A DNA stretch of 38,954 nucleotides from an uncultured Candidatus Micrarchaeota archaeon. Its GTDB lineage: Archaea > Micrarchaeota > Micrarchaeia > Norongarragalinales > Norongarragalinaceae. The stretch spans positions 1 through 38,954 of the forward strand of contig CAITNU010000072.1 of NCBI GenBank assembly GCA_903893865.1. The letters run 5' to 3'. How positions within the stretch are numbered: position 1 is the first letter of the stretch; every line of letters begins with the position of its first letter. The position numbers and the translations under genes were made by a program. Shown in pieces: positions 5,897 to 31,560 of this stretch. Below the pieces are notes generated by a model. The model was given only the letters and a program-made list of their open reading frames with translations. It was not told where the DNA came from and searched no databases.

Positions 5897-6012
5897 TTTT
5901 CAACCCTTCGTTGCTTACGTTTTCTATTTTCGTCGCTCGTCGTTGTTTGTTTAAGCGGAGAAGGTTTTTAACTTGTTTCCAACTTAACTTACTCTCCAAG
6001 GGGGCGGGTTTA

Positions 6013-6603
6013 TTGCGAATCGTTTTGTGCGTTACCGGAGCTTCGGGCATCGATTACGCGCTAGCGATCGCGCGCGAGCTCGCGCAGCAGCACGCCGAAA
6101 CTCATTGTGTCGTGACTGAAAACGCGAAGCTCGTTATGAAGTACGAGGCGCCGGCTGCGTTGCGCGAATTCAAGCGCATTTGCGCGCGCGTTTACGGCGA
6201 GAAGCAAATCGATGCGCCGATTGCGAGCGGCTCGTTTCGCGCGGATGCGCTCATCGTCTGCCCTTGCAGCATGAAGACGTTGAGCGCGATAGCGAACGGC
6301 TTCGCTTACAACCTCGTTGCGCGCGCTGCGGACGTCGCGCTCAAGGAAGGCGATGCCCGAAAAATCGTTTTGGTTCCGCGCGAGATGCCTTGGAGTGTGG
6401 TTGCTTTCGAGAACGCGTTGAAGCTCGCGCGCCTCGGCGTTGTTATTGCGCCTGCTTCGCCTGGTTTTTACGACAAGCCTAAAAGCGTTGCCGACTTAAC
6501 GAATTTCGTTGCTGGACGCGTTCTGGCTGCCGCGGGCGTGGAAAATGCGCTTTATCCTCGTTGGTCGAAAAAGCCGGAAAAGCCGAACAAGGTGAGAAAA
6601 TGA
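6013..6603 (+). CDS. ubiX: UbiX flavin prenyltransferase (prFMN synthase)
   Basis: VTGASG, IASGSF, PCSMKTLSAIANG, RAADVALKE, LVPREMP and PASPGFY motifs; TTG start at 6013 after a G-rich SD-like sequence. Confidence 0.92.
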   Translation: MRIVLCVTGASGIDYALAIARELAQQHAETHCVVTENAKLVMKYEAPAALREFKRICARVYGEKQIDAPIASGSFRADALIVCPCSMKTLSAIANGFAYNLVARAADVALKEGDARKIVLVPREMPWSVVAFENALKLARLGVVIAPASPGFYDKPKSVADLTNFVAGRVLAAAGVENALYPRWSKKPEKPNKVRK

Positions 6604-7910
6604 GTTTGCGTTCTTTCATCGAAAAGCTCGACAAGCAAGGGAAACTCTTGCGAGTAAAGAAGAAGCCGAAGGCGGAGCTTGAGGCTGCGGCGCTCATAAA
6701 AGAATTCAATGCACGGCCGCTTTTGTTCGAGAACGGCACTGCGGAAAGCGACGTGCCGTTCGTTGCGAACGTTTACTCGACGAAGCCTCTCGTCGCAGCG
6801 TATTTCGGCGTAGCGCAAAGCGAGCTCATTCCGAAAATGATTCGCGCGCTTGACGCGCCGACTGAGCCTGAAACGGTTTCGAACGCGCCGTGCCAGGAAG
6901 TAGTTGAAAACAACGTTGATTTGTACTCGCTTCCAATCGTGAAGTGTTACGCTGGCGAGGCGGGGCGCTATCTTTCGAGCGGCATCTATTTCGTAAAGGA
7001 TAAAGAGCTCGGTCAAAACGCGTCTTACCATCGTTCGCTCGTTATTTCGAAAAACCGTTTCGCGTTTCGCATGCTGCCGCGGCACCTCGCGGAGTTCAAG
7101 AAGCGCGCCGGAGGCGCAATCGACGCGGCGATTTGCGTTGGGTTCGGCGCTAACGTCGCGCTGGCGGGCGCAACGAGCGTGGATTTAGGCGCCGATGAAA
7201 TGCGCGTTGCCAACGCCCTCGAGCCCTTGAAGATGACTAAAGCGAAAACAATCGACGTCGCTGTGCCCGCCGACGCGGAGTTCGTTCTCGAGGGGCGCAT
7301 TCTCAACGAAACGAGCGCCGAGGGGCCGTTCGTCGACCTAACCGAAACGATGGACGTTCAACGCCCTGCCGAGCCCGTATTCGAAGTCAAGTGCGTGACG
7401 CACCGCAAAAACGCGGTTTGGCAGAATTTGCTGCAAGGCGGGCTCGAGCACAAGATTTTGATGGGCATGCCGCGCGAGCCAACGATTTATTCGAGCGTAA
7501 ACAAAGTCGTGAAGTGCGTGGACGTGAATATTACGCCCGGCGGTTGTTCTTGGTTGCACGGAGTCGTAAAAATAAAGAAAACAAAGGAAGACGACGGACG
7601 CAAGGCGATTGAAGCTGCTTTCGAAGGGCACAAGTCGATGAAACGCGTCGTAGTAGTGGACGACGACATCGATATTCTCGACCCGAACGAAGTCGAGTGG
7701 GCGCTTGCGACTCGCTTTCAAGCCGACGTCGATTTAATCGTGAAACCCAAGCAGAAAGGCAGCAGCCTCGATCCGTCGAGCGAGCCGGGAACGCACGTGA
7801 CGTGCAAGTGGGGGCTCGATGCGACGAAGCCGCTTGTTGCGAAAGGAAAGGATTTTACGAAAATTCGCGCGCCTAAAACGGATTCAAGGAAGTTCGTTGT
7901 GTGCGATTAG
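6600..7910 (+). CDS. UbiD-family decarboxylase, probably trans-anhydromevalonate 5-phosphate decarboxylase
   Basis: AEFVLEG, EGPFVDLT, VVVVDDDIDI, WALATRFQ, SSLDPS and GLDATKP UbiD motifs; ATGA overlap with ubiX; mevalonate context. Confidence 0.88.
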   Translation: MSLRSFIEKLDKQGKLLRVKKKPKAELEAAALIKEFNARPLLFENGTAESDVPFVANVYSTKPLVAAYFGVAQSELIPKMIRALDAPTEPETVSNAPCQEVVENNVDLYSLPIVKCYAGEAGRYLSSGIYFVKDKELGQNASYHRSLVISKNRFAFRMLPRHLAEFKKRAGGAIDAAICVGFGANVALAGATSVDLGADEMRVANALEPLKMTKAKTIDVAVPADAEFVLEGRILNETSAEGPFVDLTETMDVQRPAEPVFEVKCVTHRKNAVWQNLLQGGLEHKILMGMPREPTIYSSVNKVVKCVDVNITPGGCSWLHGVVKIKKTKEDDGRKAIEAAFEGHKSMKRVVVVDDDIDILDPNEVEWALATRFQADVDLIVKPKQKGSSLDPSSEPGTHVTCKWGLDATKPLVAKGKDFTKIRAPKTDSRKFVVCD

Positions 7911-7936
7911 TTTGTGATTAAGGAGTTGGTTGCAGC

Positions 7937-9193
7937 ATGGAGTTGACTGCTGACGAAAAAGAAATGCTTGAAGGCAAGCAAGGTAACGCCGTCAAGAAAA
8001 GCATGGAGATTTTGTGCGCGCTCGGCGAGATTTACGGGGCGAAGCGGCTCATCGACGTCAGCAGCGTGCAAATCGCGGGCGTTAGTTACGACAATCTCGG
8101 GGACGCGGGACTAGAATATTTAAGCGAGCTCGCGAAAGATGGCCGGGCGCGCGTTTTGACGACGCTGAATCCTGCAGGAATGGACCTCGAAGATTGGCGC
8201 AAGCTAGGAATCCCAGAAGATTTCGCTAAAAAACAACTAGAAGTCATCGACGCGTTCAAGAAAATGGGAGTAATCGCGAGTTGCACATGCACTCCTTATT
8301 TTATTGGCAACCTTCCGCGTTACAGCGAGAGCGTGGCGTGGAGCGAGTCGAGCGCCGTCTGTTTCGCCAACAGCGTTCTCGGCGCGAGGACGAACCGCGA
8401 GGGAGGGCCGAGCGCGATTGCGAGCGCGTTGACGGGGAAAACTGCAGAGTACGGAATGCATCTCGACGAAAACCGTCAGGCGCAAGTGCTCGTGAAAGTG
8501 CGGGCGAAGCTGCGTGCGGTGCCTGATTTCGGCGCGTTGGGTTACGCTACTGGCAAGAAAATCGGTAACAAGGTTCCGTTGTTCGTGGGCGTAAAGCGCG
8601 CGAGCGTCGAGCAACTGAAGTCGTTGTGCGCGAGCATTGCGACGTACGGAGGCACAGCGTTGTTCCACATTAAAGGCGTTACGCCTAACCGCACGAGAAA
8701 ACCAACGGAAGAAGTCATAATCACGCAAAACGACGTTGATGACGCGAAAGTCGCGCTCACGGACGCGGGTTACGATGAGCCTGACATTATTTCAGTCGGC
8801 TGCCCTCACTGTTCGATAAACGAAGTGCGGCGCATCGCGGAGCTCCTCGACGGCAAGCACGTCAAGGAAGGCAAGGAATTCTGGATTTGCATTGCGCGTC
8901 CAATCAAGCAAATCGCTGAACAGGCGGGTTACGCGAAAACGATCGAGGCGTCGGGCGCGAAGTTCGCTTGCGACACGTGCATGGTAGTAGCGCCGATTAA
9001 AGGCCGCTTCAAGTGTCTCGCGACCGACAGTGCGAAATCGTGTTTTTACGCTCGCGGCAAGAATGCTTTCAAAACGAAGTTTGGAACGCTGGAAGAATGC
9101 GTCGCAGCGGCAGTCACCGGCGAGTGGAAAGCGAAGCAAGCGAAACAAGCGAAGCCAGCGCAGCCGAAGAAAACGGAAACCGCGGCAGAATGA
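7937..9193 (+). CDS. Phosphomevalonate dehydratase large subunit (aconitase X, DUF521)
   Basis: TTLNPAG, SCTCTPY, WSESSAV, GARTNREGGP, GCPHCS and DTCMVV (Fe-S Cys ligands). Confidence 0.9.
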   Translation: MELTADEKEMLEGKQGNAVKKSMEILCALGEIYGAKRLIDVSSVQIAGVSYDNLGDAGLEYLSELAKDGRARVLTTLNPAGMDLEDWRKLGIPEDFAKKQLEVIDAFKKMGVIASCTCTPYFIGNLPRYSESVAWSESSAVCFANSVLGARTNREGGPSAIASALTGKTAEYGMHLDENRQAQVLVKVRAKLRAVPDFGALGYATGKKIGNKVPLFVGVKRASVEQLKSLCASIATYGGTALFHIKGVTPNRTRKPTEEVIITQNDVDDAKVALTDAGYDEPDIISVGCPHCSINEVRRIAELLDGKHVKEGKEFWICIARPIKQIAEQAGYAKTIEASGAKFACDTCMVVAPIKGRFKCLATDSAKSCFYARGKNAFKTKFGTLEECVAAAVTGEWKAKQAKQAKPAQPKKTETAAE

Positions 9194-9208
9194 AGCAGAA
9201 CGATTCAG

Positions 9209-9619
9209 GTGATTATGTTGGCTGAAGTAAAAGCGCGCGTTATCGCGAAAGGAGTTGCTGAAGGCGACTTGCTCGTCTCGCAAAAACCCGTTTCTTTTTA
9301 CGGGGGCGTTGATCCCGACAGCGGCGTCGTGACGGACGGCGAGAGCGACATCAAGGGGCAAAGCATCGCGGGGAGGGTTCTCGTTTTTCCTACGGGCAAA
9401 GGCTCGACTGTAGGGAGTTACACGCTTTACCGCTTGAAGAAGAACGGCAAGGCGCCTGCGGCAATTATCAACGGCGAGTGCGAAACGATTTGCGCAGTTG
9501 GCGGGATAATCAGTGATGTTCCGCTCGTCGACAAGCCCGAAGGCGGGCTTGCGCAGTTCAAGACTGGTGCAAAAGCGAAGGTTGACGCTAATGCGGGCGT
9601 AATAACGGTTACCCAATAA
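9209..9619 (+). CDS. Phosphomevalonate dehydratase small subunit (aconitase X swivel domain, DUF126)
   Basis: SFYGGVDP, GRVLVFPTGKGSTVGSY and APAAII motifs; directly after the large subunit. Confidence 0.9.
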   Translation: MIMLAEVKARVIAKGVAEGDLLVSQKPVSFYGGVDPDSGVVTDGESDIKGQSIAGRVLVFPTGKGSTVGSYTLYRLKKNGKAPAAIINGECETICAVGGIISDVPLVDKPEGGLAQFKTGAKAKVDANAGVITVTQ

Positions 9620-9902
9620 ATTCTATTTTATGCCGCTTAAATGCGCCTATCTGCGTTTGTTTTTTAAGTGCGGCAACTGTTTTAACACGAAGTATTTTCT
9701 GCATCAAACGTGGAACGTCCTTCTGCACTATGAACTTATGATTCGTGGTTGCGCCGCAAACATGATCGCCGTAAGTAGATTTTTGCCACGTATTGTTCTT
9801 TAAGTGGTATTCAACGCTGATGGTGCCTAGTGCGCCTGTATCCTGCGGCGCTTCTCCAACACTTACAATTTGTCCGTTGATGTGAGTAACCTGAATTCTC
9901 AT
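9609..9902 (-). CDS. Hypothetical protein (AT-richer orphan)
   Basis: 97-aa ORF with ATGA overlap to the IPK stop; composition is visibly AT-richer than its neighbours. Confidence 0.55.
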   Translation of the reverse strand: MRIQVTHINGQIVSVGEAPQDTGALGTISVEYHLKNNTWQKSTYGDHVCGATTNHKFIVQKDVPRLMQKILRVKTVAALKKQTQIGAFKRHKIEFIG

Positions 9903-10714
9903 TTTATCATCGTTCCGATAACGCTTTTTCCGAGCAGCGCGTCTCGCACGCGCCCTGCGGCGAGCCCATTAACAACTAGTATTTCAGTGTTTTTTGTTAA
10001 TGCTGCGATTTCGCGTAACTTGTTTATTTTTCCGAGCATTCCGCCGGTGACGTCCGCCACAGCGCGGCTTGCGCCCAGCCATTGGCTGACTTCAGCGTAA
10101 TTCTTCTTGTTGATTTCGGGGACGAGCGGAGCAATGCCTGCCGCGGCTTCGTTCGGATTGCCTGCGAATACGCCGTCGACTTCGCCGGCAACCACTATTC
10201 GATTCGGCTTTAATTCTTCGGCGAGGAACGCGAAGATTTCTTCGGTTGGAAGAATGCACATTCCGCGTTTTTCATCTATTGCGACGTCTCCGTAAACGCA
10301 CGGCACGAGTCCGAGCTCCAAGATTTTTTTGAGCGGCGTTAAATCCCATTTGACGATGCGCGATTCGCGCGCGATTGCGCCGGCGCTCGGGTGAATGCTG
10401 CAAGCGTTTACGCCCGCGCTTAGCAGGGCGTTCACGACGATTCGGTTGAGGCGTGCCGCGGCGTCTTGCACTTCCGCGAACCCGCGCACGCTTTGAGGAC
10501 CCAAATAACCCTTATGAGTTTGAAACTTGTGAGCGGGACCGTGAGGAAAACTTCCTCCTCCATTACCAATTATCAATTCGAAGTGTTTGGCTTTGCGGGC
10601 TTCAGCGATTTCGCGGCATAATCGCGCGATTACAGTTGGCCGCGTCGTGAACGGCTTCGTTTTGTCGGTAATGAGCGAGCCGCCGAGCTTGAGGAAAACG
10701 ATTTCGCGCTTCAT
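9899..10714 (-). CDS. ipk: Isopentenyl phosphate kinase (amino acid kinase family)
   Basis: LKLGGSLITDK, GGGSFPH, YGDV, DGVF and DVTGGMLGK motifs. Confidence 0.9.
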   Translation of the reverse strand: MKREIVFLKLGGSLITDKTKPFTTRPTVIARLCREIAEARKAKHFELIIGNGGGSFPHGPAHKFQTHKGYLGPQSVRGFAEVQDAAARLNRIVVNALLSAGVNACSIHPSAGAIARESRIVKWDLTPLKKILELGLVPCVYGDVAIDEKRGMCILPTEEIFAFLAEELKPNRIVVAGEVDGVFAGNPNEAAAGIAPLVPEINKKNYAEVSQWLGASRAVADVTGGMLGKINKLREIAALTKNTEILVVNGLAAGRVRDALLGKSVIGTMIK

Positions 10715-10733
10715 GGTAATACCTTCGAATATT

Positions 10734-11309
10734 TCATTTCAGAAAATTGCGGCCTTTCTTGCTTTTGGCTAAAAGCTTTACTGCCAAGCGGAACCAAACC
10801 GCGTACTTCTTGGGTTTCGCGCGGATTTCAGCGAGCGCCTTGCCGGCTTTCAGAAAAATGAGTTTTCCGGAAACCTCTTTCGGGTTCGGCTTGAACTTTC
10901 CCGCGTGCTTGACTACGCTAACCAAGCAGAACTCGTTTTCGCACGTTCCGTCAGGGTAATGCTCCTCGTAAGAAAAACCGCCGAAATGAGTAAACGCGCG
11001 CGGCGCGAAGCCGTACTCTTCTTTGAGGCAGCGGCGTATTGCTTTTTCTTTCGTTTCGCCCGCGAGCACGTGACTGACTGGCGTATCGAGCACGCCGCCG
11101 CCGACTTTGCGGCGCGGCCGCTTGTGGAGAACGAATTCGCCGCGTTCGTTCAAAACGAGGATTGCGAACGCGAGGTGTTTTACTCCCGGAGTCGTGTGCG
11201 CTTCCCACCGCTTGACTTTTGCGCCAGTCAGGCGGCCGCTGGGCGTGGCGGCGTAAAGAACCTGGTTCGCTTTGTGCGCGTCTTTGTGCAAGTTCATAAG
11301 CGTATTCAC
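10734..11309 (-). CDS. Type 1 (Nudix-fold) isopentenyl-diphosphate isomerase-like protein
   Basis: AH...HLAF, SH..GE, RCLKEEYG, ENEFC and a C-terminal W match the IDI-1 layout; adjacent to ipk; the catalytic Cys position appears substituted. Confidence 0.7.
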   Translation of the reverse strand: MNTLMNLHKDAHKANQVLYAATPSGRLTGAKVKRWEAHTTPGVKHLAFAILVLNERGEFVLHKRPRRKVGGGVLDTPVSHVLAGETKEKAIRRCLKEEYGFAPRAFTHFGGFSYEEHYPDGTCENEFCLVSVVKHAGKFKPNPKEVSGKLIFLKAGKALAEIRAKPKKYAVWFRLAVKLLAKSKKGRNFLK

Positions 11310-11805: not shown

Positions 11806-12594
11806 TCAAATTTTTTCGTACTTAAAACCGATTTCTTCGAGCGAACGGAGCAGTGAGCTCCGGTTGTCCGCGCCGCAGCCCTTCCAATCGATGAGCGCGC
11901 ACTCGACTGGCTCCGCCGTTGCCGCTATCGCCGCACGAATCGTTTCTGTTCTAACGTTTTCAAGCAAGTGTTTCGGGCAAATGTGCGACGCGGCGTAGCC
12001 TTGCTCGAGCACTTTATCGTAAGAAGGAACATAGTGGCCGCCACCAAACAAAACTGAGACTTTGCCTATGGCGTCGCTCCAGCCTCGCGCGACTTCCTCG
12101 ACGCAACCGGCAGCTAGGCGGCACGCGTCTTCGTTGCGCCACTCGGCTTCAGTGCTGCCGACTTCGATGAAGAGCGAGGGAATCGCGAGCGAGAAAGGCC
12201 CGTGGTGCGTTGCTTCCCGCGCCGCCTCGAATCCTTCGAGGGGGTTGCGGAGAAAGAATTCGCTTGCGGCTTTCAGCGCGAAAGCGCTTGTTTTCGAAAA
12301 ACGCGAGTGTCCCCAATCGCCGGTTGCGTGCGTGGTAAAGCACGGTTTGCCGCTTTCACTGGCGTGCCGCGAGGCGAAAACGAACAAGTCGCTGTAAAAA
12401 TAGTCGCCGATGAATTCGGCTTCGATTAATCGCGAATCGATTTCGACGAGTTCTGCGTAGTCGCTGGACCAGCCTTTGAAAGAGCGGCCGCGCTCCGTCA
12501 CGTCGTGGCGTTGCGCGAATCCGTGCTCGTCGCGAAGCGCGTTCGCGATTCCGCAGCCTGCGACGTCTTGCGTCGAGTAAAATACTATCGGCGT
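11806..12594 (-). CDS. dtdA: D-aminoacyl-tRNA deacylase (archaeal DTD2/DtdA)
   Basis: FASRHASESGKPCFTTHATG, EATHHGP, FIEVGSTE, GGGHY and SHICPK motifs; the frame stays open upstream of 12501 through a family-like N-terminus (PIVFYSTQDVAG) to an ACG at 12594. Confidence 0.88.
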   Translation of the reverse strand, partial: TPIVFYSTQDVAGCGIANALRDEHGFAQRHDVTERGRSFKGWSSDYAELVEIDSRLIEAEFIGDYFYSDLFVFASRHASESGKPCFTTHATGDWGHSRFSKTSAFALKAASEFFLRNPLEGFEAAREATHHGPFSLAIPSLFIEVGSTEAEWRNEDACRLAAGCVEEVARGWSDAIGKVSVLFGGGHYVPSYDKVLEQGYAASHICPKHLLENVRTETIRAAIAATAEPVECALIDWKGCGADNRSSLLRSLEEIGFKYEKI

Positions 12595-13353: not shown

Positions 13354-14154
13354 ATGACTTCCGTTGACGACGACGTGTTCGACCGCCAAAAACGCGTGCG
13401 CGGGTGGAACCAGGACGCGCTCGAGCGTTCGCGCGTTCTCGTAGTCGGCGCGGGTGCGCTAGGCAACGAAGTCTTGAAACTGCTCCTGCAACTCGGTGCG
13501 CGCAAGATTACGATTGTTGATAATGATTCGATAGTCAAAGCCAACCTCAACAGGTGCGTGTTCTTTACCCCAGAAGATGCCGAGCGCGGTACGCTCAAAG
13601 TTGACGCGTTGAAGCGGGAAGCCAAGCGGTTGTTCCCGCAAGCGGATGTCTTGGCGTTGCCTAAACTCATCGAACAGCTCCCAGAAAGTTTTTACGACGG
13701 CTTCGACTGCGCCTTCGGTTGCCTAGACAATTTGGGCGCGCGCTTGCATCTCAACGCTTTCGCTTACGGCAAAGTTCCGCTGATTGATGGTGGGACGACG
13801 GGCTTCCTCGGGAAAGTTCAAGTAGTCGACGCGCCGAGCGCGTGTTTGGAATGCGGTTTGGCTAAGCGCGATTACAAGCTGCTTTGGCTGAAATACTCTT
13901 GCACTGGCGACGAAATCGATTGGTTGAACCCGAAAATGCCCGCGCTGCCGACTACGACGAGCGTAGTCGCGGGAATGCAAGTAGAGGAATTCCTGAAACT
14001 GCTTTTCTCGCAAGCCGAAGGAGCGCCGAAGGACATGTTAGAGGCTGCGGCCGAGCACTCGCTCGTTGGAAAATATTTGCTTTACGACGCGTTGCGGCGC
14101 GAGGCGCGCGTTTTCGAAATCCCGAAGCGCAAGACGTGCCCGGTTCACGGTTAG
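13354..14154 (+). CDS. Ubiquitin-activating E1-like enzyme (ThiF/UBA family)
   Basis: FDRQ, VVGAGALGNEVLK, D.IVKANLNR, LDNLGARLHLN, PLIDGGTTGFLG, CLEC, candidate catalytic Cys in YSC, and C-terminal CPVH. Confidence 0.9.
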   Translation: MTSVDDDVFDRQKRVRGWNQDALERSRVLVVGAGALGNEVLKLLLQLGARKITIVDNDSIVKANLNRCVFFTPEDAERGTLKVDALKREAKRLFPQADVLALPKLIEQLPESFYDGFDCAFGCLDNLGARLHLNAFAYGKVPLIDGGTTGFLGKVQVVDAPSACLECGLAKRDYKLLWLKYSCTGDEIDWLNPKMPALPTTTSVVAGMQVEEFLKLLFSQAEGAPKDMLEAAAEHSLVGKYLLYDALRREARVFEIPKRKTCPVHG

Positions 14155-14882
14155 CGGTGTTTTACTGCGAGTACGGTAGTTTCCATTCCAAAGTATTTGT
14201 TTGGACCGCTGCGAACATTCAAGTCCCTACTCAATAATGTTCTTCTAACGCGGTTCCTTACAGGTTTAAGGTAATAAAACAGGCCTAAAACATGACTTGA
14301 GTATGCATTTGTTCCGCCGCGTTTTACTATCGCGAAACCCGCGGTTTGCAGTTCTTGCTCGAGTTTTCTTCTAGTAAGTTCCGCCATTCTTCCGTAAGCC
14401 CATCGTCCAGTTATTTGTTGAATCGCTTTGTTGGTGCGATACGGAATACTTTCTGGATTTGGAACGGTTATAACCAATCTTCCTCCCGGTTTTAGTTTTT
14501 TGTATATTTGCCCAAGTATTTTGAGGCGGTCTCTTTCACGGTGATGTTCAATCATGCCTTCCGAGTAGAACGCATCGACGGTTTCCATCGGAATATCAAG
14601 TCGCATCGCATTCCCGCGAATTATTTGTGCATCCACGTTTAACCCGCGTGCTGTTTTTGCGGCTTGTTTTAGTGCTTCTTGACTTTCATCAACTAGAATC
14701 AAGCGGGCGTTCGTTTTGGCTGCAAACCGGATAGTTCCTTCGGCTCTTCCACAACCAACGTCGACAAGCACTTTATTCCCCATTTCTGGTAAAAGAGTTA
14801 GTAATGTTATGAGGTTTCTTTGTGGACGTCCTGGCAATTGCTTGTTTGACCGCCAAAACTCGTCCCAATCGTGTTGCGCCAT
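14151..14882 (-). CDS. Class I SAM-dependent methyltransferase
   Basis: LVDVGCGRAEG, EGMIEH and LKPGGRLVITVPN motifs; likely start ATG 14882 (MAQHDW); AT-rich. Confidence 0.85.
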   Translation of the reverse strand: MAQHDWDEFWRSNKQLPGRPQRNLITLLTLLPEMGNKVLVDVGCGRAEGTIRFAAKTNARLILVDESQEALKQAAKTARGLNVDAQIIRGNAMRLDIPMETVDAFYSEGMIEHHRERDRLKILGQIYKKLKPGGRLVITVPNPESIPYRTNKAIQQITGRWAYGRMAELTRRKLEQELQTAGFAIVKRGGTNAYSSHVLGLFYYLKPVRNRVRRTLLSRDLNVRSGPNKYFGMETTVLAVKHR

Positions 14883-14890
14883 ATTAAAAC

Positions 14891-15976
14891 CTAGAACACG
14901 TTTTTGAGTTGCTTCACGGCTTCTTCCGAGCGAGCGTCCATCGCGAGCTTTAACTTCTTTCCGCAGCGAACGCAATTGCCGCCGCGCTCGTCAGCCGCCA
15001 GCGTTTCGTAGCAGTCCTTGTGGTAAGCAGCTCCGCAGAAGCAGTGCCCGTACTTTGCGGTTGCACCCGCGCTTGCGGCGCTGGCGCCGACAGCGATTTT
15101 GAATGGCGCGCGACAGAGTTCGCAGACCTCCGTTTCCCCGACTCGCATCGCCGCGCCTTTAGCGATTTCCGCTTCGAGCGCTTTCTTTAGTTCAACCTCG
15201 TTTTTGGAAACCGCATCGACTTCGAGCGGCGGATGCGGCTTGAATTCCTTTTTCGGCGTTTGCTTGAACGGTTGCTTTAGTTTTTGCTCTTTCTGTTCCT
15301 TTTGCTCTCTCGGCTTGGCTTGCGCTCCGTTCGGTGCGCCTTTCTTGAACGCGTCCTCGAGGTCGATTTCTTTTTCCTTTTCGCCGAGCGACGCGCTGAA
15401 CAGTTCGCGTTCTTCGGACATCGCGCGCTGCAACACATCCTTCTCCATGCCTTCCTTCTTTTCTTTTTCGCGCTGCTCTTCCTCCGTCTTCAGCAGCGTT
15501 TGCCTCGCGTCCCAAACAACGTTCGCGGCGTTCGCAGCCTCTTCCGCTTCGCCTGCTTTTTCCAAGGTTTTTTTGAAGAAACTCGAGAAAACGTCGAAGC
15601 CCTTAACGGTGAAGCTCAAATAATCGTTGTCGAATTTTCCGCGCACGAGCAATCCTTCTTCGCACAAGCGCGAGAGCTCGGCCTCGAACTCGCCCGCGTC
15701 GACTCGCAGCGCATCGCGAATGTTTTGCGCGCTTCGCTCGCCTCGCACGACTAGTTTCGCTATGGTCTTGTCGAACTTCGAAACAACGAATTTTTTCTTG
15801 CGGGGCTTGCGGGCAGCCTTCGGCTTTTCGGTTTTTTCAGTTGTTTCGCTTGTCTCGGCGGTTTTCGGAATCACTTGCGTTTCGTCAGCGGCAAGCGGCA
15901 CATCGATTAACGATTTAAGTTTCGCCTCGCGCTTTCGCTTGGGCTTCTGCGGTTCGAATGAAGGCAATGGTTCCAT
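14891..15976 (-). CDS. wHTH + C-terminal C4HC3 RING-like protein (candidate E3 ligase)
   Basis: CELC-x~24-CFC-x4-HKDC-x12-CVRC; N-terminal wHTH-like segment (SAQNIRDAL...EFEAELSRLCEEGLL...SFTVKG); charged linker. Confidence 0.72.
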   Translation of the reverse strand: MEPLPSFEPQKPKRKREAKLKSLIDVPLAADETQVIPKTAETSETTEKTEKPKAARKPRKKKFVVSKFDKTIAKLVVRGERSAQNIRDALRVDAGEFEAELSRLCEEGLLVRGKFDNDYLSFTVKGFDVFSSFFKKTLEKAGEAEEAANAANVVWDARQTLLKTEEEQREKEKKEGMEKDVLQRAMSEERELFSASLGEKEKEIDLEDAFKKGAPNGAQAKPREQKEQKEQKLKQPFKQTPKKEFKPHPPLEVDAVSKNEVELKKALEAEIAKGAAMRVGETEVCELCRAPFKIAVGASAASAGATAKYGHCFCGAAYHKDCYETLAADERGGNCVRCGKKLKLAMDARSEEAVKQLKNVF

Positions 15977-15980
15977 TGTT

Positions 15981-16457
15981 TTAATCACGCTTTCTTGCGA
16001 TTACTGCGTAACTCGCTTCGCGACACTCGCCGCCGGCGTCAAGCTTGAACACGCGCTTTTCGCGGTTGACTGGATCGATTACTAACGCGACTTGAAAATT
16101 TTCCTGAAAAAAAGCGCGTTGCGCTTTCTCGTCCGCCGAACTCATAAAGCAGCCGTAGCCCGGGTGCGAGTGGCACCAGCCGACAATGATTTTACCGTCG
16201 CGCTTTGCGAGGCTTGAAGCGATTTCAGCTATTCCCTCGCTTTCGAGGCGCGTCGTCGCTGCGGTGCTGTTGTTTTTTCCAGTGAGGTAATCGCTGACGA
16301 CGACGAATTCGCTTCCCTCCCAAACGCCTGCTTCGCCTGCGAGCAAACCCATTGCTTCGTTGCCGCTTTCAGCTGCTGTTTCGAAATGCTTTAGCGCTTT
16401 GCGCAGCGCGCGTTCCTCAATGTACGCCTCAAAAATTTGCTTCATTATTTTTTTCAA
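15981..16457 (-). CDS. JAB1/MPN+ (JAMM) metallo-isopeptidase, Rpn11-like
   Basis: EAMGLLAG; IVGWCHSHPGYGCFMSSAD..AQ; ALVIDP (complete E...HxH-x7-S-x2-D motif). Confidence 0.92.
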   Translation of the reverse strand: MKKIMKQIFEAYIEERALRKALKHFETAAESGNEAMGLLAGEAGVWEGSEFVVVSDYLTGKNNSTAATTRLESEGIAEIASSLAKRDGKIIVGWCHSHPGYGCFMSSADEKAQRAFFQENFQVALVIDPVNREKRVFKLDAGGECREASYAVIARKRD

Positions 16458-16503: not shown

Positions 16504-17226
16504 TTACTGGAAGCCGAAGGCCGCCTTGAGTTTGCCGAAGAAGCCGAGCTGCTTCTTTTTCTGTTCTTCGTGCTGCAGCCAAAGCCTGCGCGCTTCCTCG
16601 ACGCGCACTTCCTTGCTCGCCTGCTCTAGAGTCGCGTTAAACGGCGTGCCCGGCTGCGGCACGGTAGGCCAAACGTCTCGCGACGCCTGCTCGTTCATTT
16701 TCTCGATGATTTTCGGCGTTCCTTTTTCCTCGGGTTTAAGCACAGGCTCGGTAATACTTTTGATGACCGGCCTTTTCTTCTCCGGCGCGGCGGGTTTCTC
16801 GACCTCGACGAGGCTCTCTTCTTCTTCCTGTTCTTCTTTTTCTTCCGCGGTTTCTTCCTGCGGTTCCTCCTCGTTTTCTTCTTTCGCTTCATCTTTTTCT
16901 TCAACCGCTTCCGCCGCAGGTGCTTCCGTCGGCGTTTGTTTTTCCCGCATCTCTTCCGCAGTCAGTTCAGTAAGCGATTCTTTCGGCGCCTCTTTAGGCT
17001 CGGGCGTTTCTTGCATTTGTTCTCGCGCTTCTTCAGGCGTTTCTTCCGCCGCGCCTATTGCTTCGCGCACGAGCTCGTCCTGCCGTCGCAGCGCCGCTTC
17101 AGGATGTGTTTTCAGGTATTCGCCGCGCTGCGCTTCCCACGCTTCCAGCGTCTCGTCGCTGACTACGCGGACGATTCGCGGTTTTTTCGTGGATGGCGTC
17201 GTTTGCGCGTCGTTTTCTTCGCTCAT
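16504..17226 (-). CDS. Glu-rich low-complexity hypothetical protein
   Basis: 240 aa, strongly acidic; co-directional with and upstream of the JAB gene. Confidence 0.75.
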   Translation of the reverse strand: MSEENDAQTTPSTKKPRIVRVVSDETLEAWEAQRGEYLKTHPEAALRRQDELVREAIGAAEETPEEAREQMQETPEPKEAPKESLTELTAEEMREKQTPTEAPAAEAVEEKDEAKEENEEEPQEETAEEKEEQEEEESLVEVEKPAAPEKKRPVIKSITEPVLKPEEKGTPKIIEKMNEQASRDVWPTVPQPGTPFNATLEQASKEVRVEEARRLWLQHEEQKKKQLGFFGKLKAAFGFQ

Positions 17227-17326
17227 TTCCCTCTCCCGAAAGCGATTAAAGCAAACGCATTAATAGCAGTTTCGCTTTCCAATAAACGTCGTTAGGTTTT
17301 TCGAATAGTTTTCAGAGGTGGTCTGC

Positions 17327-17572
17327 ATGGCGAACGAATTTAATATCACGGTGACTCACACTACGAGCGGCAAGGAAGTCGTCGTGGCAGTCGAGCCGGA
17401 ATTCACGGTAGGCTCGATTTTAGATGTTTTGACTGAAAGCCTCCAGTTGAAGGACCGCTTCGTACTCGCTTCGACCGACAACAAAGTGTTGAATTCCGAG
17501 GCGAAGGTCGCGGACGCGGGGCTCAAGGAGGGCTCGCGTTTGCTGTTGATGCCCGACCCCACCGGCGGCTAA
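17327..17572 (+). CDS. Ubiquitin-like protein (beta-grasp) with mature C-terminal GG
   Basis: 81 aa; EVVVAVEPEFTV resembles ubiquitin TITLEVEPSDTI; ends LLLMPDPTGG*; SD GAGGTG upstream. Confidence 0.88.
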   Translation: MANEFNITVTHTTSGKEVVVAVEPEFTVGSILDVLTESLQLKDRFVLASTDNKVLNSEAKVADAGLKEGSRLLLMPDPTGG

Positions 17573-17602: not shown

Positions 17603-18112
17603 ATGCCCATGCTTCCTGAAGCTATTTGGCGCCGCCGACTTGAAGCCGAACACGGCGAAATGCTTGCTTCCAACGAAAAATTCGATTGCTCGAACGATTT
17701 CACTCAGTACACTGTCAGCGTGCGCGGCCCCGGGCTTTACAAAAACGGAGGCAAACTCAGCAGGCGCGACTCGCACTCGGTGCAGATTACGCTCAAGCGC
17801 GAATATCCTTACGCCGGCGGAATCGAAGTCGTCTGGCTAACGCCGATTTTTCATCCGAACATTCATCCCGGCGATGGGAAGGTCTGCATTCAACTGCTTA
17901 ACGAGTGGAGCGAGTCGCAGAACCTCGTTAGCCTCGTCAAAGCGCTTCGCCAATTACTCGTGCAGCCGAATCCTTACAACGCGCTCGACAAAGACGCAGC
18001 GGACTTTTTTGCCGACCGCTCGGAGGACGTGAATCGCGTTCTCGGAATAAACGTCAGCGCTTTCGAGGCTACGCCGCAGCCATTGAAGCCGAAGATAATC
18101 GGTAGCAAGTGA
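17603..18112 (+). CDS. Ubiquitin-conjugating enzyme E2 (UBC fold)
   Basis: RRRLEAE, EYPY, TPIFHPNI...GKVCIQLLNEWS and LLVQPNPYNALDKDAA; HPN triad and catalytic Cys present. Confidence 0.93.
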   Translation: MPMLPEAIWRRRLEAEHGEMLASNEKFDCSNDFTQYTVSVRGPGLYKNGGKLSRRDSHSVQITLKREYPYAGGIEVVWLTPIFHPNIHPGDGKVCIQLLNEWSESQNLVSLVKALRQLLVQPNPYNALDKDAADFFADRSEDVNRVLGINVSAFEATPQPLKPKIIGSK

Positions 18113-18259: not shown

Positions 18260-21061
18260 TCACACTTTCCAATACCCTTTAGTGCGCAGGAAACGCTTCT
18301 GCTCTTCCAGCAAGTCTGCTACGAGTTCGTCTTCGTTGTTTTGCAAGCGGCCGAGCACTCGGCGCGCGGTTGCGGGGCCAACGCCGAAAGTTTCAAGCGC
18401 TAGCAGCCCGCGCCTGCCGTAACCGCTGAGCACGGCGAGAGCAGCATTGCCTTCCTTGAATTTGCGGCGCTCTTCGAAATCGAGTTCGCGGCCCTTCTTT
18501 TTTTTCTCGAAGATTTCGCGATAATCTTCCAGCGTCAAACGATTGGAACCGCAGTACGGGCAAAGCAAGGCAGCTTCCGCTTCCTTCACGGTTTTTCCGA
18601 ACGACTTTCCGCAGAAAGTGCAGTAAAGCCGCGGTCGTTTTTCGAGTAGCGTTTCCTTGAATGCTTGAACGACTTGGCTCGTTGGCTCGGCTGGCGCCAT
18701 TAGTTCGCCGAACGCGCCGAAATCAAAGAATTCTTGCGCGAGCGGAGACCATTTTCCTTTATCCGCGATTACGCGCACGGCGCAGTCGAATGCCGCGCTA
18801 GCGTCCGCGAAGCTGAGCTTGTCGAAGAAGACTTCAGCAAGCGTTTCCTCGAAAACAGGCGAATCCTTCAGCGCTTCCGACAGGCGGCGTACGCCTATAT
18901 CGCGGATTTCGCTTTTCTTGCTCACAACGCCGAATGCTTTCGCGACTCCGAGAAAACGCGTGCGGAAAAGCGACGTGTTGGGAACCGCGTTGCGGAGCAC
19001 CGCCGCAAGGTGCCTGCCACTTAATTCCTTGAAATACGCTGCTGCGCGAGTTGCGCCGATTTGCTTGCCGCACTCGAACATGCAACCGTAAGCGCTCGTT
19101 TTCACGCGCACGCCCGCGCCAGTCGCGGCGCTCATTAGCGCTGCGAGCGCGCGTCCGAGAGTTTCGTTTGCTTTCGTTCCAAGAAAGCAGTGCATCGCGA
19201 TTAGTTCGCGGTTGCTTTCGAAAACGATTTCGTTTGCGCTCGGAACAAAGAAATCGCTTTGTCGTAAAGCGAGTTCGCGCATTCGCTCTATCGCATCTTC
19301 GCTGCAAGCGTATTTTTCCTTCAGCTCGCTCGGCGTTATCTTTTTTTCGACGGCTTTTTCGAGGAGCGAAGCAACGCTTTGCGAGACGTCGCGCGTTATC
19401 GGAATCTCTTCCCCAACCCATTCCGGCACAGCAGCGCTTAAATCACGCGTCGGTTCGACGACGACTTCGTTTTCCGTCACGCTCAGCACTTTCCACGCCC
19501 TGCCGCGAGCGATGAATGTTGCGCCTTCGCCGAGATATTCCGCAACGAATTCCTCGTCGAGCGTGCCTACTGTCTTGCGCGTCGTCGCGTCTTTCACGAA
19601 GAATTTCTTAGTGTCGCGAATCGTGCTCACGTTCTCGTAATAGTAAAGCCGCGTTTTCGGAGTTGCGCGAAGCGTCGCGCCGTCGAACCAGACGCACCGC
19701 GCGTCGTGCAACTGCGCCGCGCATTTCGCTAGCTCGCCGATTTCGATTTCAGCGAATGGCGCGGCGCGCCGCACGATTTGCAGCGCACGCTCGAGTTTGA
19801 CTTCGCCGTTGCCGTCGAGGCAGAGTCCCGCGAGTTGGTGCGCGAGAACGTCTAATGCGTTCCTGCGGATTTCGAGCGGCTCGAGGAGTCCGCGGCGCGC
19901 CCGCTCGACGATTACTGCGGCTTCGAAGCAATCGAGCGCGTTTTCCGCGATTACGACGCCTTTCGGCGTTAAATGCTTGCGGTGGCCGCTTCGCCCCGTG
20001 CGCTGCAAAAAGCGCGTCGCCTGCCTAGGCGAAACGAATTGAATCGATAAATCGATTGCACCCACGTCGATTCCGAGTTCGAGCGAACTCGTGCAAACGA
20101 TGGCGCGCAGTTTGCTGCCGAATTTCTTGAATTCGCGTTCGGTTTCAACTCGCGCGTCTTTAGACAGAGATGAGTGGTGGACTGCGACGGAGTCGCGCAT
20201 CGCGGGCGACTCGAAAAGCATTGCGCTTAGTGATTCCGCGACGTAGCGCGTGTTCACGAAAAGCAGCGTTCGATTGTGCGATTCGATTAGCGCTTTAACT
20301 CGTTCGAGTTTCGCCTTGTTTTCGTTGCTTAATCCGATTCCTTCGAATTCGCCCGTGCTCGGAACGCTCGGGCACTCGATCGCTGCGTCTATTCTGCGTT
20401 CGAGCCCGCTTTTCACGATGACCGCATCTCGCGCGAGAAAGCGTGCGACTTCTTCTTCGTTTCCGACGGTGGCGCTGAGTCCGATGATTTGAAAACCGTT
20501 TTTCGTTTTCTCGCGCAGCCGCTGTAATCCTAACGACAGTTGGATTCCGCGCTTGCTGTCGGCGAGTTCGTGCACTTCGTCTACGACGACGAACCGCACG
20601 TTTTCAAGCGCGTTGCTGAGCACAGGCGCAACGAGCATGCTTTGAAGCGTTTCTGGAGTCGTCACGAAAATTTCTGCTGGCTTGTCGCGCTGTTTTTTGC
20701 GTTCGTTTTGAGTTGTGTCGCCGTGGCGCACCGTAATGCTTATTCCGAGGAGTGCACACCACGATTCGAGGCGTTCGAGCATGTCGCGGTTGAGCGCGCG
20801 CAACGGCGTGACGTAAAGCGCTTTGATTCCTTGTTTTTGCGGCAAACCGCCTTCAGCCTGCGCTTCCTCGTCGTGCGCGTCAAGGATTTTCGATAGAATG
20901 GGAAGAAAAGCGACTTCGCTTTTCCCGAAGCCGGTGGGCGCTATCGCGAGAACGTTTTTGCCAGCGAGCAGTAGCGGTATCGCTTTCTCCTGGATTTCAG
21001 TCCACTCGGTGAAACCTTTTGCTTTCGCGACGCGGACGACTTCGCTGCGCAGTTGAGCCAT
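18260..21061 (-). CDS. lhr: Lhr-like SF2 (DEAH) helicase
   Basis: APTGFGKS, PLRALNRD, TTPETL, DEVH, GLSAT, SSLELGIDVG and QRTGRSGH motifs; C-terminal CxxC...CPYCGS and HhH-like FGVGPATA. Confidence 0.9.
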   Translation of the reverse strand: MAQLRSEVVRVAKAKGFTEWTEIQEKAIPLLLAGKNVLAIAPTGFGKSEVAFLPILSKILDAHDEEAQAEGGLPQKQGIKALYVTPLRALNRDMLERLESWCALLGISITVRHGDTTQNERKKQRDKPAEIFVTTPETLQSMLVAPVLSNALENVRFVVVDEVHELADSKRGIQLSLGLQRLREKTKNGFQIIGLSATVGNEEEVARFLARDAVIVKSGLERRIDAAIECPSVPSTGEFEGIGLSNENKAKLERVKALIESHNRTLLFVNTRYVAESLSAMLFESPAMRDSVAVHHSSLSKDARVETEREFKKFGSKLRAIVCTSSLELGIDVGAIDLSIQFVSPRQATRFLQRTGRSGHRKHLTPKGVVIAENALDCFEAAVIVERARRGLLEPLEIRRNALDVLAHQLAGLCLDGNGEVKLERALQIVRRAAPFAEIEIGELAKCAAQLHDARCVWFDGATLRATPKTRLYYYENVSTIRDTKKFFVKDATTRKTVGTLDEEFVAEYLGEGATFIARGRAWKVLSVTENEVVVEPTRDLSAAVPEWVGEEIPITRDVSQSVASLLEKAVEKKITPSELKEKYACSEDAIERMRELALRQSDFFVPSANEIVFESNRELIAMHCFLGTKANETLGRALAALMSAATGAGVRVKTSAYGCMFECGKQIGATRAAAYFKELSGRHLAAVLRNAVPNTSLFRTRFLGVAKAFGVVSKKSEIRDIGVRRLSEALKDSPVFEETLAEVFFDKLSFADASAAFDCAVRVIADKGKWSPLAQEFFDFGAFGELMAPAEPTSQVVQAFKETLLEKRPRLYCTFCGKSFGKTVKEAEAALLCPYCGSNRLTLEDYREIFEKKKKGRELDFEERRKFKEGNAALAVLSGYGRRGLLALETFGVGPATARRVLGRLQNNEDELVADLLEEQKRFLRTKGYWKV

Positions 21062-31432: not shown

Positions 31433-31560
31433 TCCGACCGCCTCCAACGAAAATTCGTTTTAACCAGTAAAATTACTACAAACGCGCCGCTATTTATTAG
31501 CTGTGTTTAGGTATTTCGGCGCTTTCGTCGTAGCCTCGACGAGGTTCTAGAGATTTTCAG

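Follow-up and report, generated by a model that had tools for sequence, protein, structure and literature searches.

A multidomain protein in a ubiquitin-like conjugation cluster of a Micrarchaeota order is a probable RING-type E3 ligase

The 38,954-nucleotide (nt) stretch of DNA analyzed here (the window), contig CAITNU010000072.1 of GenBank assembly GCA_903893865.1 from an uncultured Candidatus Micrarchaeota archaeon, carries a chromosomal cluster of genes for a ubiquitin-like protein (Ubl), an E1-like adenylating enzyme, an E2 conjugating enzyme, and a JAB/MPN isopeptidase. Immediately behind the JAB gene lies an open reading frame (ORF) for a 361-residue protein that combines a winged helix, a charged linker, and a C-terminal zinc domain (Table 1). 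We read this protein as the RING-type E3 ligase of the E1/E2/Ubl/JAB system and as a variant, with several domains, of the archaeal small RING protein, with a probability of roughly 65%. A preliminary description of the sequence had proposed a ligase encoded beside an isopeptidase, the putative writer next to its eraser; a RING-type E3 in this position is indeed best supported, whereas the proposed kinship of its RING domain to RINGv and prokaryotic RINGs is not. Among 401 genomes sampled across the Micrarchaeota phylum (49 of the window's order, G000 included, and 352 of other orders), the system is confined to the window's order, which the public records of the homologues name Norongarragalinales.

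The ORF lies on the reverse strand and begins either at an ATG (14891..15976, giving 361 residues) or at a GTG (14891..15988). The JAB gene ends with a TAA at 15981-15983 and the ATG occupies 15976-15974, leaving 4 nt between the two, while the alternative GTG at 15988 would overlap the JAB stop. At the other end, a TAG at 14893-14891 is followed 8 nt further on by the ATG of a methyltransferase gene at 14882. Of 20 loci retrieved from different families of the order, 17 have a start codon for the candidate between -11 and +15 nt from the JAB stop, with a 4-nt overlap being frequent. Translational adjacency to the JAB gene, as originally described, is thus a feature of the window that is kept across the order.

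Alignments of 31 homologues of the whole protein (A1) and of 76 family members (A3; 35 to 93% identical to the zinc domain of the window) reveal five conserved elements split by variable charged sequence: an N-terminal tail, a winged helix, a short motif, the zinc domain, and a terminal helix. Mean pairwise identity is highest in the zinc domain (0.57), followed by the terminal helix (0.48), the motif (0.43), and the winged helix (0.32), and drops to 0.14 to 0.19 in the linkers. The protein is 37% charged and contains 71 K/R residues. Its tail has a net charge of +7 over residues 1-65 (+1 to +12 in the 31 homologues), and K, R, D, and E make up 42% of residues 124-279, of which 124-193 are predicted to be helical. 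Within the linker, the motif DLxELxKKGAP recurs in 48 of 74 family representatives, is doubled in two, and has the candidate as its sole match in its own genome; the terminal F361 is found in 72 of the 76 members. A word search retrieved 63 homologues, the named ones being "hypothetical" proteins of Micrarchaeota or Norongarragalinales, and family members of 70 to 193 residues look like fragments or truncated gene calls. The proposed architecture of winged helix, charged linker, and C4HC3 zinc domain is confirmed (ORF, ligand spacing, predicted winged-helix fold, and linker charge).

The zinc domain is defined by the ligands C285-x2-C288-x23-C312-x-C314-x4-H319-x2-C322-x12-C335-x2-C338, spaced as first written in the preliminary description, and by the pattern C-x2-C-x(17-23)-C-x-C-x4-H-x2-C-x(10-12)-C-x2-C across the 76 members. 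All eight ligand columns are invariant or restricted to Cys and His: C285 is present in 75 of 75 sequences, C288, C314, H319, C322, C335, and C338 each in 76 of 76, and position 312 holds 75 Cys and one His. This pattern is far beyond chance, and it supplies eight Cys/His ligands in the order and spacing that a cross-brace requires. Position 311 varies (69 H, 5 Y, and 2 N), and H311 is therefore not regarded as a ligand. The resulting ligand order, C4HC3 (C, C, C, C, H, C, C, C), is that of the PHD or RINGv kind.

Sequence comparisons link the domain to RING fingers at sub-significant levels. When 29 isolated zinc domains were scanned against Pfam, matches below the cut-off were found, among the best 25 of 52 families listed, to Prok-RING_1 in all 29, to zf-RING_2 in 27 (best E, 7.1e-5), to C1_1 in 20, to zf-RING-like (which we take to be the Nse1 RING family) in 19, and to the Vps41 RING in 18. 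PHD-type matches among those listed comprise PHDvar_NSD (17 of 29; best E, 0.017) and PHD_NSD (5 of 29), and none is to RINGv. Against Prok-RING_1 (PF14446), the isolated domain of the window scores 19.2 bits, compared to a gathering cut-off of 29.1, and the best E value among the 29 members is 4e-4. The whole protein has no significant match in Pfam (C1_1, E of 0.28; Prok-RING_1, E of 0.51); the Prok-RING_1 match spans just 12 residues around H319-C322, and this family is also matched at an E of ≤1 in 10 of 14 control genomes. A whole-protein search of the Protein Data Bank (PDB) returned matches at chance level only (MreB, 0.0097; MarR, 0.74).

In a profile search of the PDB with the zinc domain, ten of the 11 sequences at an E of ≤10 are RING E3s (AMFR, RCHY1, TRIM32, RNF24, EL5, and RNF4 among them). 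The best matches, AMFR (E of 0.047, aligned from C3 to beyond C8) and RCHY1 (E of 0.078), lie below significance. In these RING-H2 alignments, C314 corresponds to ligand 3, H319 to ligand 5, C322 to ligand 6, and C335/C338 to ligands 7 and 8. Since the canonical position of ligand 4 is taken by Ala316, C312, two residues before ligand 3, must replace the fourth ligand. On sequence grounds, the finger is best described as a RING-H2-like core in which the fourth ligand has moved. The earlier preference for a RINGv/Prok-RING kinship over the RING-H2 type of Caldiarchaeum is not supported, as Prok-RING_1 stays below threshold and the best alignments are to RING-H2 domains. By these comparisons, the domain is a sequence-level orphan that fits no curated RING family. 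Matches of the zinc domain in a protein atlas, whose scores of <0.9 make them leads only, are to small RING proteins from Nitrososphaerota, Promethearchaeota, and giant viruses, and a scan of viral contigs gave 98 pattern matches, none of which was confirmed.

The AlphaFold2 model of the isolated domain, based on the 76 sequences, has a mean predicted local distance difference test (pLDDT) score of 66.1, with core blocks at 71 to 84. A beta-hairpin (308-311 and 317-319) is followed by a helix (320-327) that begins at H319/C322, the arrangement expected for a RING treble clef. The predicted model is in accord with a RING fold, in which a zinc knuckle and a beta-hairpin precede a helix whose start bears ligands 5 and 6. 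When the model was compared to the PDB with Foldseek, all 42 entries listed were RING or U-box E3 entries or complexes with one. The RING of TRIM21 ranks first (E of 0.017, probability of 0.99), and Not4, TRIM32, RNF4, APC11, and Nse1 are listed as well. Nse1 (5hvq_C) aligns with a root mean square deviation (RMSD) of 1.8 Å over 60 columns and the TRIM entries with 11 to 12 Å over 81 to 86 columns. VIA-align, which is independent of Foldseek and was run against 48,161 chains, lists 39 of 50 entries that are RING, U-box, or E3 by title; the best is 4ccg_Y (Z of 5.4, RMSD of 2.8 Å, 57 residues, 28% identity), and 12 chains reach a Z of at least 5. The other 11 entries come from large complexes or proteins (GATOR2, SEA, RQC, the Fanconi core, APC/C, the spliceosome, Lassa Z, and others), which presumably carry RING or U-box modules. 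This evidence has weight because the match lists are uniform, not because the scores are high. As three independent weak signals agree (the Pfam matches, the PDB profile, and the AlphaFold2 model with its two fold searches), we conclude with moderate confidence that the predicted fold of the zinc domain is of the RING type, that of a binuclear finger, in line with the RING that had been proposed.

The gene is tightly coupled to the conjugation cluster. A full-length match to the candidate is found in 48 of the 49 genomes of the order, and its zinc domain in none of the 352 others; the E2 family is present in 47 of the same 49 and likewise in none of the 352. The lone genome with the candidate and no E2 has the candidate on a 2.2-kb contig, and the lone genome that lacks both is 78% complete. 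Of the 47 genomes with both genes, 43 have them on a single contig and 42 have them within 5 kb of each other, the median gap being 1585 nt. All 20 loci have the JAB gene immediately upstream in the same orientation, the E1 gene is adjacent and convergent in 18, and the Ubl and E2 genes are present in 18 and 17, respectively. Co-occurrence and synteny with E2, Ubl, E1, and JAB are thus the rule in the order. (Tallies of the tail-anchored family described below, and presumably those of the candidate and E2, include genomes G029 and G198, flagged as unpublished, on which no claim rests solely.) The candidate's own genome (about 1 Mb, 78% complete) gives no zf-RING_2 match at an E of ≤1, and its second weak Prok-RING_1 match is a 45-residue C4 zinc ribbon.

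The partner enzymes appear intact. The E2, the only one in the genome, is matched by 233 E2 sequences of the PDB at an E of ≤1e-3, and its invariant residues in 17 sequences include R11, R12, P69, Y70, H84, P85, N86, C95, and W102. The JAB enzyme, likewise the sole match to its family in the genome, has E34, H96, H98, S106, and D109 invariant in 21 sequences. In the E1, a GxGxxG motif, a Zn site (C164/C167/C262/H265), and the loop residue Cys183 are invariant in 19 sequences, and the Ubl stops directly after GG in the window and at 14 of 18 orthologous loci. With active sites invariant and a Ubl ending in GG, the cascade looks functional, as far as sequence can tell. At the remaining 4 of the 18 loci (L034, L037, L042, and L047), the Ubl continues for 1 to at least 10 residues past the GG. 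Such extended forms would need trimming, presumably by the JAB enzyme, by analogy with the pro-ubiquitin of Caldiarchaeum, which is trimmed likewise according to the main text of PMC5654768.

The residues expected to mediate E2 contact are conserved in kind. In the reconstituted Caldiarchaeum cascade, the E2 loop-4 residues PY67/68 and residues I30, W58, and R69 of the small RING protein are needed, as described in the main text of PMC5654768. The corresponding E2 residues P69 and Y70 are invariant here (17 sequences), position 287 is Leu in 74 and Val in two of the 76 family members, a hydrophobic residue occupies position 326 in 71, and positions 336 and 340 hold V, I, A, or L (in 72) and K or R (in 73), respectively. 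Prediction of a complex of the E2, two Zn ions, and the zinc domain gave a score of 0.51 (runs of 0.56, 0.51, and 0.50), versus 0.00 for the best control, which is graded as weak support and adds a small increment to the case for E2 binding. At least 57% of contacts are common to the runs, and the pLDDT of the partner is at least 63. The mark passed here is reached by 116 of 157 solved complexes and by 2 of 215 mismatched pairs, and scores of ≤0.60 account for 18 of the 157 and for both mismatches; the present run differs from this calibration in using its own alignments and in the zinc ions that ride along.

Taken as a mechanism, the C-terminal domain would bind two zinc ions in a RING cross-brace, one through C285, C288, H319, and C322 (site 1) and the other through C312, C314, C335, and C338 (site 2). 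It would then dock on the RING-binding face of the single E2, formed by the helix-1 arginines, the loop-4 Pro-Tyr, and the loop-7 Trp, by means of L287 (C1+2), L/I/V326 on the helix after C6, V/I336 (C7+1), and the K/R at C8+2. Docking would promote transfer of the GG-ended Ubl from Cys95 of the E2 to lysines. Targeting, partner docking, or self-association could fall to the other conserved parts, namely the winged helix, the basic tail, the DLxELxKKGAP motif, and the terminal helix, and the JAB enzyme, presumably made from the same transcript, could reverse the modification or mature Ubl precursors. Of all this, the domain layout, its conservation, the predicted class of fold, and the coupling in the genome are observed here, whereas binding of zinc and of the E2, activity as a ligase, and the part played by the winged helix are inferred.

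Several points weigh against the assignment of the protein as an E3. No curated family of Pfam, NCBIfam, or PADLOC reached its cut-off for the candidate. A profile of 29 zinc domains, searched against 1.84 billion representative proteins, gave 72 matches at an E of ≤1e-10, all from its own family, and none outside it better than 4.5e-6. Homology to RINGs is hence not demonstrated by sequence, since this search recovered the family alone (its matches lie nearly all at the C-terminal end of proteins of 70 to 422 residues, and the one clear exception looks frameshifted). Structural confidence is middling, as the zinc region has pLDDT values of 41 to 72 in the full-length model and the domain model averages 66. 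The fold likeness is weak in absolute terms, with no Foldseek match at an E of ≤1e-3 and no VIA-align match at a Z of ≥8, and Z values such as those obtained can, by the search tool's own warning, reflect a common arrangement. Canonical RINGs usually have a Trp on the helix, a Pro after C7, and the linchpin Arg directly after C8; the candidate has Leu/Ile/Val for the Trp, Val/Ile/Ala for the Pro, and Gly339 at the position of the Arg, in addition to its displaced fourth ligand. The complex prediction may have passed through memory of RING-E2 structures, i.e., by likeness to solved complexes rather than by binding, because RING-E2 pairs are abundant among solved structures. The genome, at 78% completeness, may also encode another E3.

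These points leave some room for a protein that binds the Ubl, its conjugates, or the JAB enzyme as a reader, receptor, or scaffold without activating the E2, for instance by guiding deconjugation or handing conjugates to the proteasome, of which three subunit matches are found in the genome. The C4HC3 order is common to PHD-type fingers, the family PHDvar_NSD is weakly matched by 17 of the 29 domains, the gene is translationally coupled to JAB and not to the E2, and E2 binding is weakly supported by computation. RING-family sequence matches are nonetheless stronger and more frequent than PHD-type ones. Structural entries listed are RING, U-box, E3, or large-complex chains with none titled as a reader finger, and no PHD, C1, FYVE, or zinc-ribbon entry is among those listed by either fold search, an absence from the lists rather than an exclusion. 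Moreover, hydrophobic residues are kept at the E2-contact positions of the finger, the E2 keeps an invariant RING-binding surface that implies a partner, and no other RING was found in the genome. A non-catalytic role, the alternative that the preliminary description had named as a PHD-like reader, seems unlikely to us.

The other domain that could point away from a ligase is the winged helix, which matches MarR-type proteins in VIA-align (Z of 10.4, RMSD of 1.8 to 2.7 Å over 71 to 77 residues) and MarR, AspA, and DtxR-N in Foldseek at a probability of about 1. Atlas leads (scores of <0.9) are to MarR-like archaeal proteins. At the sequence level, Pfam shows no MarR match for the protein, and the PDB MarR match is the chance-level one given above. 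The winged helix has a net charge of -6 to +2 across the 31 homologues, and in the protein of the window the third of its helices is acidic. The winged helix is not obviously a DNA reader, and support for the suggested DNA tethering is limited to its predicted fold class. A search for operators found no palindrome common to the upstream regions of 17 orthologous clusters. The divergent promoter between the acidic and Ubl genes contains a perfect inverted repeat with 8-nt arms, GAAAGCGA/TCGCTTTC, set 26 nt apart (17238-17279), which is confined to the genome itself and absent from related loci.

Outside the window's order, the winged-helix part alone matches in 95 of the 352 genomes. The sister-order relatives are proteins of 215 to 293 residues that contain two winged helices and a spacer rich in Q, P, and A and have a transmembrane helix at the C terminus, and hhalign relates the winged helix of the candidate to the second of the pair (95.8% probability, E of 7e-9). 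This tail-anchored family occurs in 262 of the 401 genomes at an E of ≤1e-5, in nearly every sister family except f18 (0 of 76) and f20 (0 of 17). In the window's order, it gives weak matches in 8 of 48 genomes only, and in each of the five of these that were checked the best weak match is the candidate gene itself. The complementary distribution of the tail-anchored family and the candidate suggests that the winged helix derives from this lineage-specific family, from which we infer that the ligase drew its targeting domain. Loci of the tail-anchored family (L052-L061, e.g., L054:7154-7969) place it beside genes of the ADP-forming acetyl-CoA synthetase type (three loci annotated), with a beta-CASP nuclease gene upstream in 3 of 3 loci and a class-III aminotransferase gene in both loci scanned.

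Could the protein be a transcription regulator of the cluster, or another DNA-binding protein, with the zinc domain as a dimerization or sensing module and the co-occurrence with E2 reflecting regulation? The MarR-type fold, the strongly basic tail, and the inverted repeat in the divergent promoter would be in keeping with this, and one source calls a homologue a "DNA-binding Lrp family transcriptional regulator." Against it stand the neutral to acidic charge of the winged helix, including the acidic third helix of the window's protein, the restriction of the repeat to its own genome, and the lack of a palindrome common to the 17 upstream regions. Conservation also falls on the wrong domain, with the RING-like finger at 0.57 and the winged helix at 0.32, and the related winged helices of sister orders belong to tail-anchored membrane proteins and not to typical regulators. 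We consider a purely regulatory role somewhat less likely than that of a reader, and DNA binding would in any case be compatible with ligase activity in the form of a DNA-tethered E3. Very unlikely, finally, is that the protein serves chiefly as a substrate or structural partner of the system, being rich in lysine, carrying the Ubl as a modification, and having a zinc domain that is structural only: its highly charged, K/R-rich composition would suit this, and RING E3s and their relatives are often themselves modified, but its lysine-rich linkers are least conserved, its zinc domain is most constrained, and a strict operon place beside JAB is typical of a machinery component.

A K/R-P-K/R-[IVL]-[IVL] motif ends the E2 in 17 of 17 orthologues (18086-18100, forward strand, in the window; loci L032-L050), and the same motif, at times doubled, heads the acidic protein encoded upstream of JAB in most loci. 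Orthologues of the acidic protein vary in length; an N-terminal KPR[IV][IV], the motif "DI[TL]P," and a C-terminal tail of basic and hydrophobic residues are common to them. The presence of the tail motif on both the E2 and the acidic protein suggests, from sequence, a common docking site.

A more far-reaching scenario, which we regard as doubtful when all its parts are taken jointly, is that of a home-grown multidomain E3. In the ancestor of the order, the second winged helix of the tail-anchored tandem family would have joined an orphan RING, and the Ubl system would have taken over, or come to control, the role of the membrane-anchored tandem winged-helix protein. The E2 would be held at two points, with the RING on its catalytic core and the winged helix or DLxELxKKGAP on its K-P-R-I-V tail, and the acidic protein sharing the tail motif would act as competitor, regulator, or first substrate.

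The closest known system is that of Caldiarchaeum subterraneum, in which a Ub/E1/E2/RING operon, neighboring an Rpn11-like JAB gene, was reconstituted in vitro (main text of PMC5654768). In both archaea, genes for a GG-type Ubl, ThiF-type E1, UQ_con E2, and JAB/Rpn11-like protease lie together in a compact cluster. The small RING protein of Caldiarchaeum, srfp, has C3/H4 out of register by two with an extra Cys, termed "C3B" (PMC5654768), and ligands 3 and 4 of the candidate likewise lie two residues off the canonical register, again with an additional Cys. Also conserved between the two are the Pro-Tyr of E2 loop 4, the hydrophobic residue at C1+2, and the basic residue after C8. In contrast to srfp, a small stand-alone C3H2C3 finger as described there, the candidate is a multimodular protein of 361 residues with a C4HC3 finger and a charged linker of about 140 residues that contains a motif. 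It further differs in having Leu/Ile/Val for the Trp and Gly directly after C8, in the translational coupling of its gene to JAB, in lacking a detectable RING-family relation at the HMMER level, and in its host, which belongs to DPANN and not to Aigarchaeota or Asgard.

The comparison with eukaryotic Nse1 drawn in the preliminary description is fair as an analogy. Nse1 of SMC5/6 is a winged-helix (kite) subunit with a C4HC3 variant RING and acts as an E3 with Ubc13/Mms2, which illustrates that a variant RING of this order can be a true ligase (main text of PMC8750328). Both proteins pair a winged helix with a C4HC3 RING-type finger, and Nse1 RINGs are among the structural matches (VIA-align, 7dg2_A with a Z of 5.3 and an RMSD of 3.5 Å over 56 residues, and 2ct0 with a Z of 5.1). 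The candidate has one winged helix, compared to the tandem pair of Nse1 in that account, and about 140 linker residues before its finger, which in Nse1 abuts WHB. Pfam gives no Nse1 match in the candidate, and no partners of the SMC5/6 type are apparent. The two proteins are alike by analogy of architecture and not by membership.

Eukaryotic RING-H2 and TRIM E3s (AMFR/gp78, RCHY1/Pirh2, TRIM21/25/32, RNF4, and TRAF6) provide the best sequence and fold matches and have in common with the candidate the central helix from the fifth and sixth ligands and a flanking helix, which in TRIM and RNF4 RINGs mediates dimerization. They differ from it in their canonical fourth ligand and in B-box, coiled-coil, and eukaryotic context, all lacking in the candidate, and its scores against them are sub-significant. 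With Prok-RING_1, one of the prokaryotic RING families reportedly defined by Burroughs, Iyer and Aravind in 2011, the candidate has in common the linkage of a finger to E1/E2/JAB genes and the weak match in 29 of 29 members; unlike members of that family, it falls below the gathering cut-off, so that membership cannot be claimed.

Table 1. Features of the candidate gene and its surroundings in the window
Feature	Position	Strand	Basis or remarks
Basic disordered N-terminal tail (residues 1-60; KPKRKR, RKPRKKK)	15797..15976	-	pLDDT 49-58
MarR-like winged helix-turn-helix (residues 61-141)	15554..15796	-	pLDDT 89-96 and fold matches
Charged, poorly conserved linker (residues 142-279)	15140..15553	-	Long predicted helix to ~193, disorder after
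DLEDAFKKGAP motif in linker (residues 205-215)	15332..15364	-	Conserved island in A1; consensus DLxELxKKGAP
RING-type binuclear zinc domain, predicted (residues 280-345)	14942..15139	-	Invariant ligands, predicted fold
C-terminal helix SEEAVKxxKxxF (residues 346-361)	14894..14941	-	Helix predicted in both models
JAB/MPN isopeptidase	15981..16457	-	Pfam JAB 1.2e-10; directly upstream of candidate, same operon
Acidic low-complexity protein	16504..17226	-	ORF; first gene of the JAB-candidate operon
Ubiquitin-like protein ending PDPTGG	17318..17572	+	ORF, GG end
E2 (UQ_con), HPN...C95 active site, C-terminal KPKII tail	17603..18112	+	Pfam 7.6e-16
E1-like ThiF-family adenylating enzyme, convergent with candidate operon	13354..14154	+	Pfam ThiF 2.8e-45
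S-adenosylmethionine (SAM)-dependent methyltransferase	14151..14882	-	Pfam Methyltransf_25 2.1e-16
Isoprenoid run members	4841-11309		GHMP kinase, UbiD-like decarboxylase, AcnX large and small subunits, amino-acid-kinase-fold enzyme, Nudix protein

The cluster lies in an ordinary stretch of chromosome, with genes for a class I tRNA synthetase, ribosomal proteins, RNase HII, mevalonate-pathway enzymes, CCA enzyme, and SRP54, and an even GC content over the window. A mobile or defense-island origin was considered and rejected, given this housekeeping context, the even GC content, and the absence of any PADLOC family for the candidate, E2, and Ubl. On the E1, PADLOC matches the adenylation part only of the "E1-E2" models of the cyclic oligonucleotide-based antiphage signaling system (CBASS). 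The methyltransferase gene matches the PADLOC model mad2 (E of 2.2e-17), probably through generic methyltransferase similarity, and represents a recent local insertion outside the conserved cluster, since it is present in none of the 20 orthologous loci. Beyond the cluster itself, a D-aminoacyl-tRNA deacylase gene (11806-12501, reverse strand) flanks it in 14 of the 20 loci and an Lhr-type helicase gene (18260-21061, reverse strand) in 10, a wider synteny that may be merely historical. The isoprenoid-precursor gene run (Table 1) corresponds to a typical archaeal mevalonate route. Further away, 29429-31447 (reverse strand) encodes a 672-residue protein with three Laminin_G_3 (concanavalin-like) repeats, probably a surface protein. 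No RNA data are listed for the stretch, parts of which are contained in four DNA runs of one study.

In public records, the E2 is annotated as a ubiquitin-conjugating enzyme and the candidate as "hypothetical." Our literature search, which covered main texts and had the 2011 prokaryotic-RING survey and the supplements of PMC5654768 (with possible "Cluster III" lineages) outside its scope, found no account of a ubiquitin-like cascade in Micrarchaeota or DPANN or of this architecture. The main texts of two Norongarragalina genome papers do not contain "ubiquitin," nor those of PMC4327156 and PMC11354881 "DPANN" or "Micrarchae." Eukaryote-like E1/E2/RING cascades are documented in Aigarchaeota and Asgard and surveyed in Crenarchaeota and Euryarchaeota, and the ligase in the documented archaeal cascades is a small stand-alone RING (main texts of PMC5654768 and PMC4327156). 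The protein of the window is probably an archaeal Ub-operon E3 of another make, multidomain and drifted past sequence recognition, with a layout that we did not find described for archaea.

If the ligase is active, the range of RING-dependent tagging would extend to Micrarchaeota. A DPANN genome of 1 Mb with a single E2, a single JAB enzyme, and a single candidate ligase, built from modules in the manner of eukaryotic E3s (targeting domain, linker with docking motif, and RING), would then offer a very small, fully defined system for the acquisition of substrate specificity by RINGs. RING domains could drift past sequence detection yet keep their fold and genomic role, and surveys based on Pfam RING families would therefore miss such ligases. 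Should the scenario of a home-grown E3 also prove true, targeting modules would have been attached to RINGs, and multipoint docking of the E2 acquired, independently of eukaryotes.

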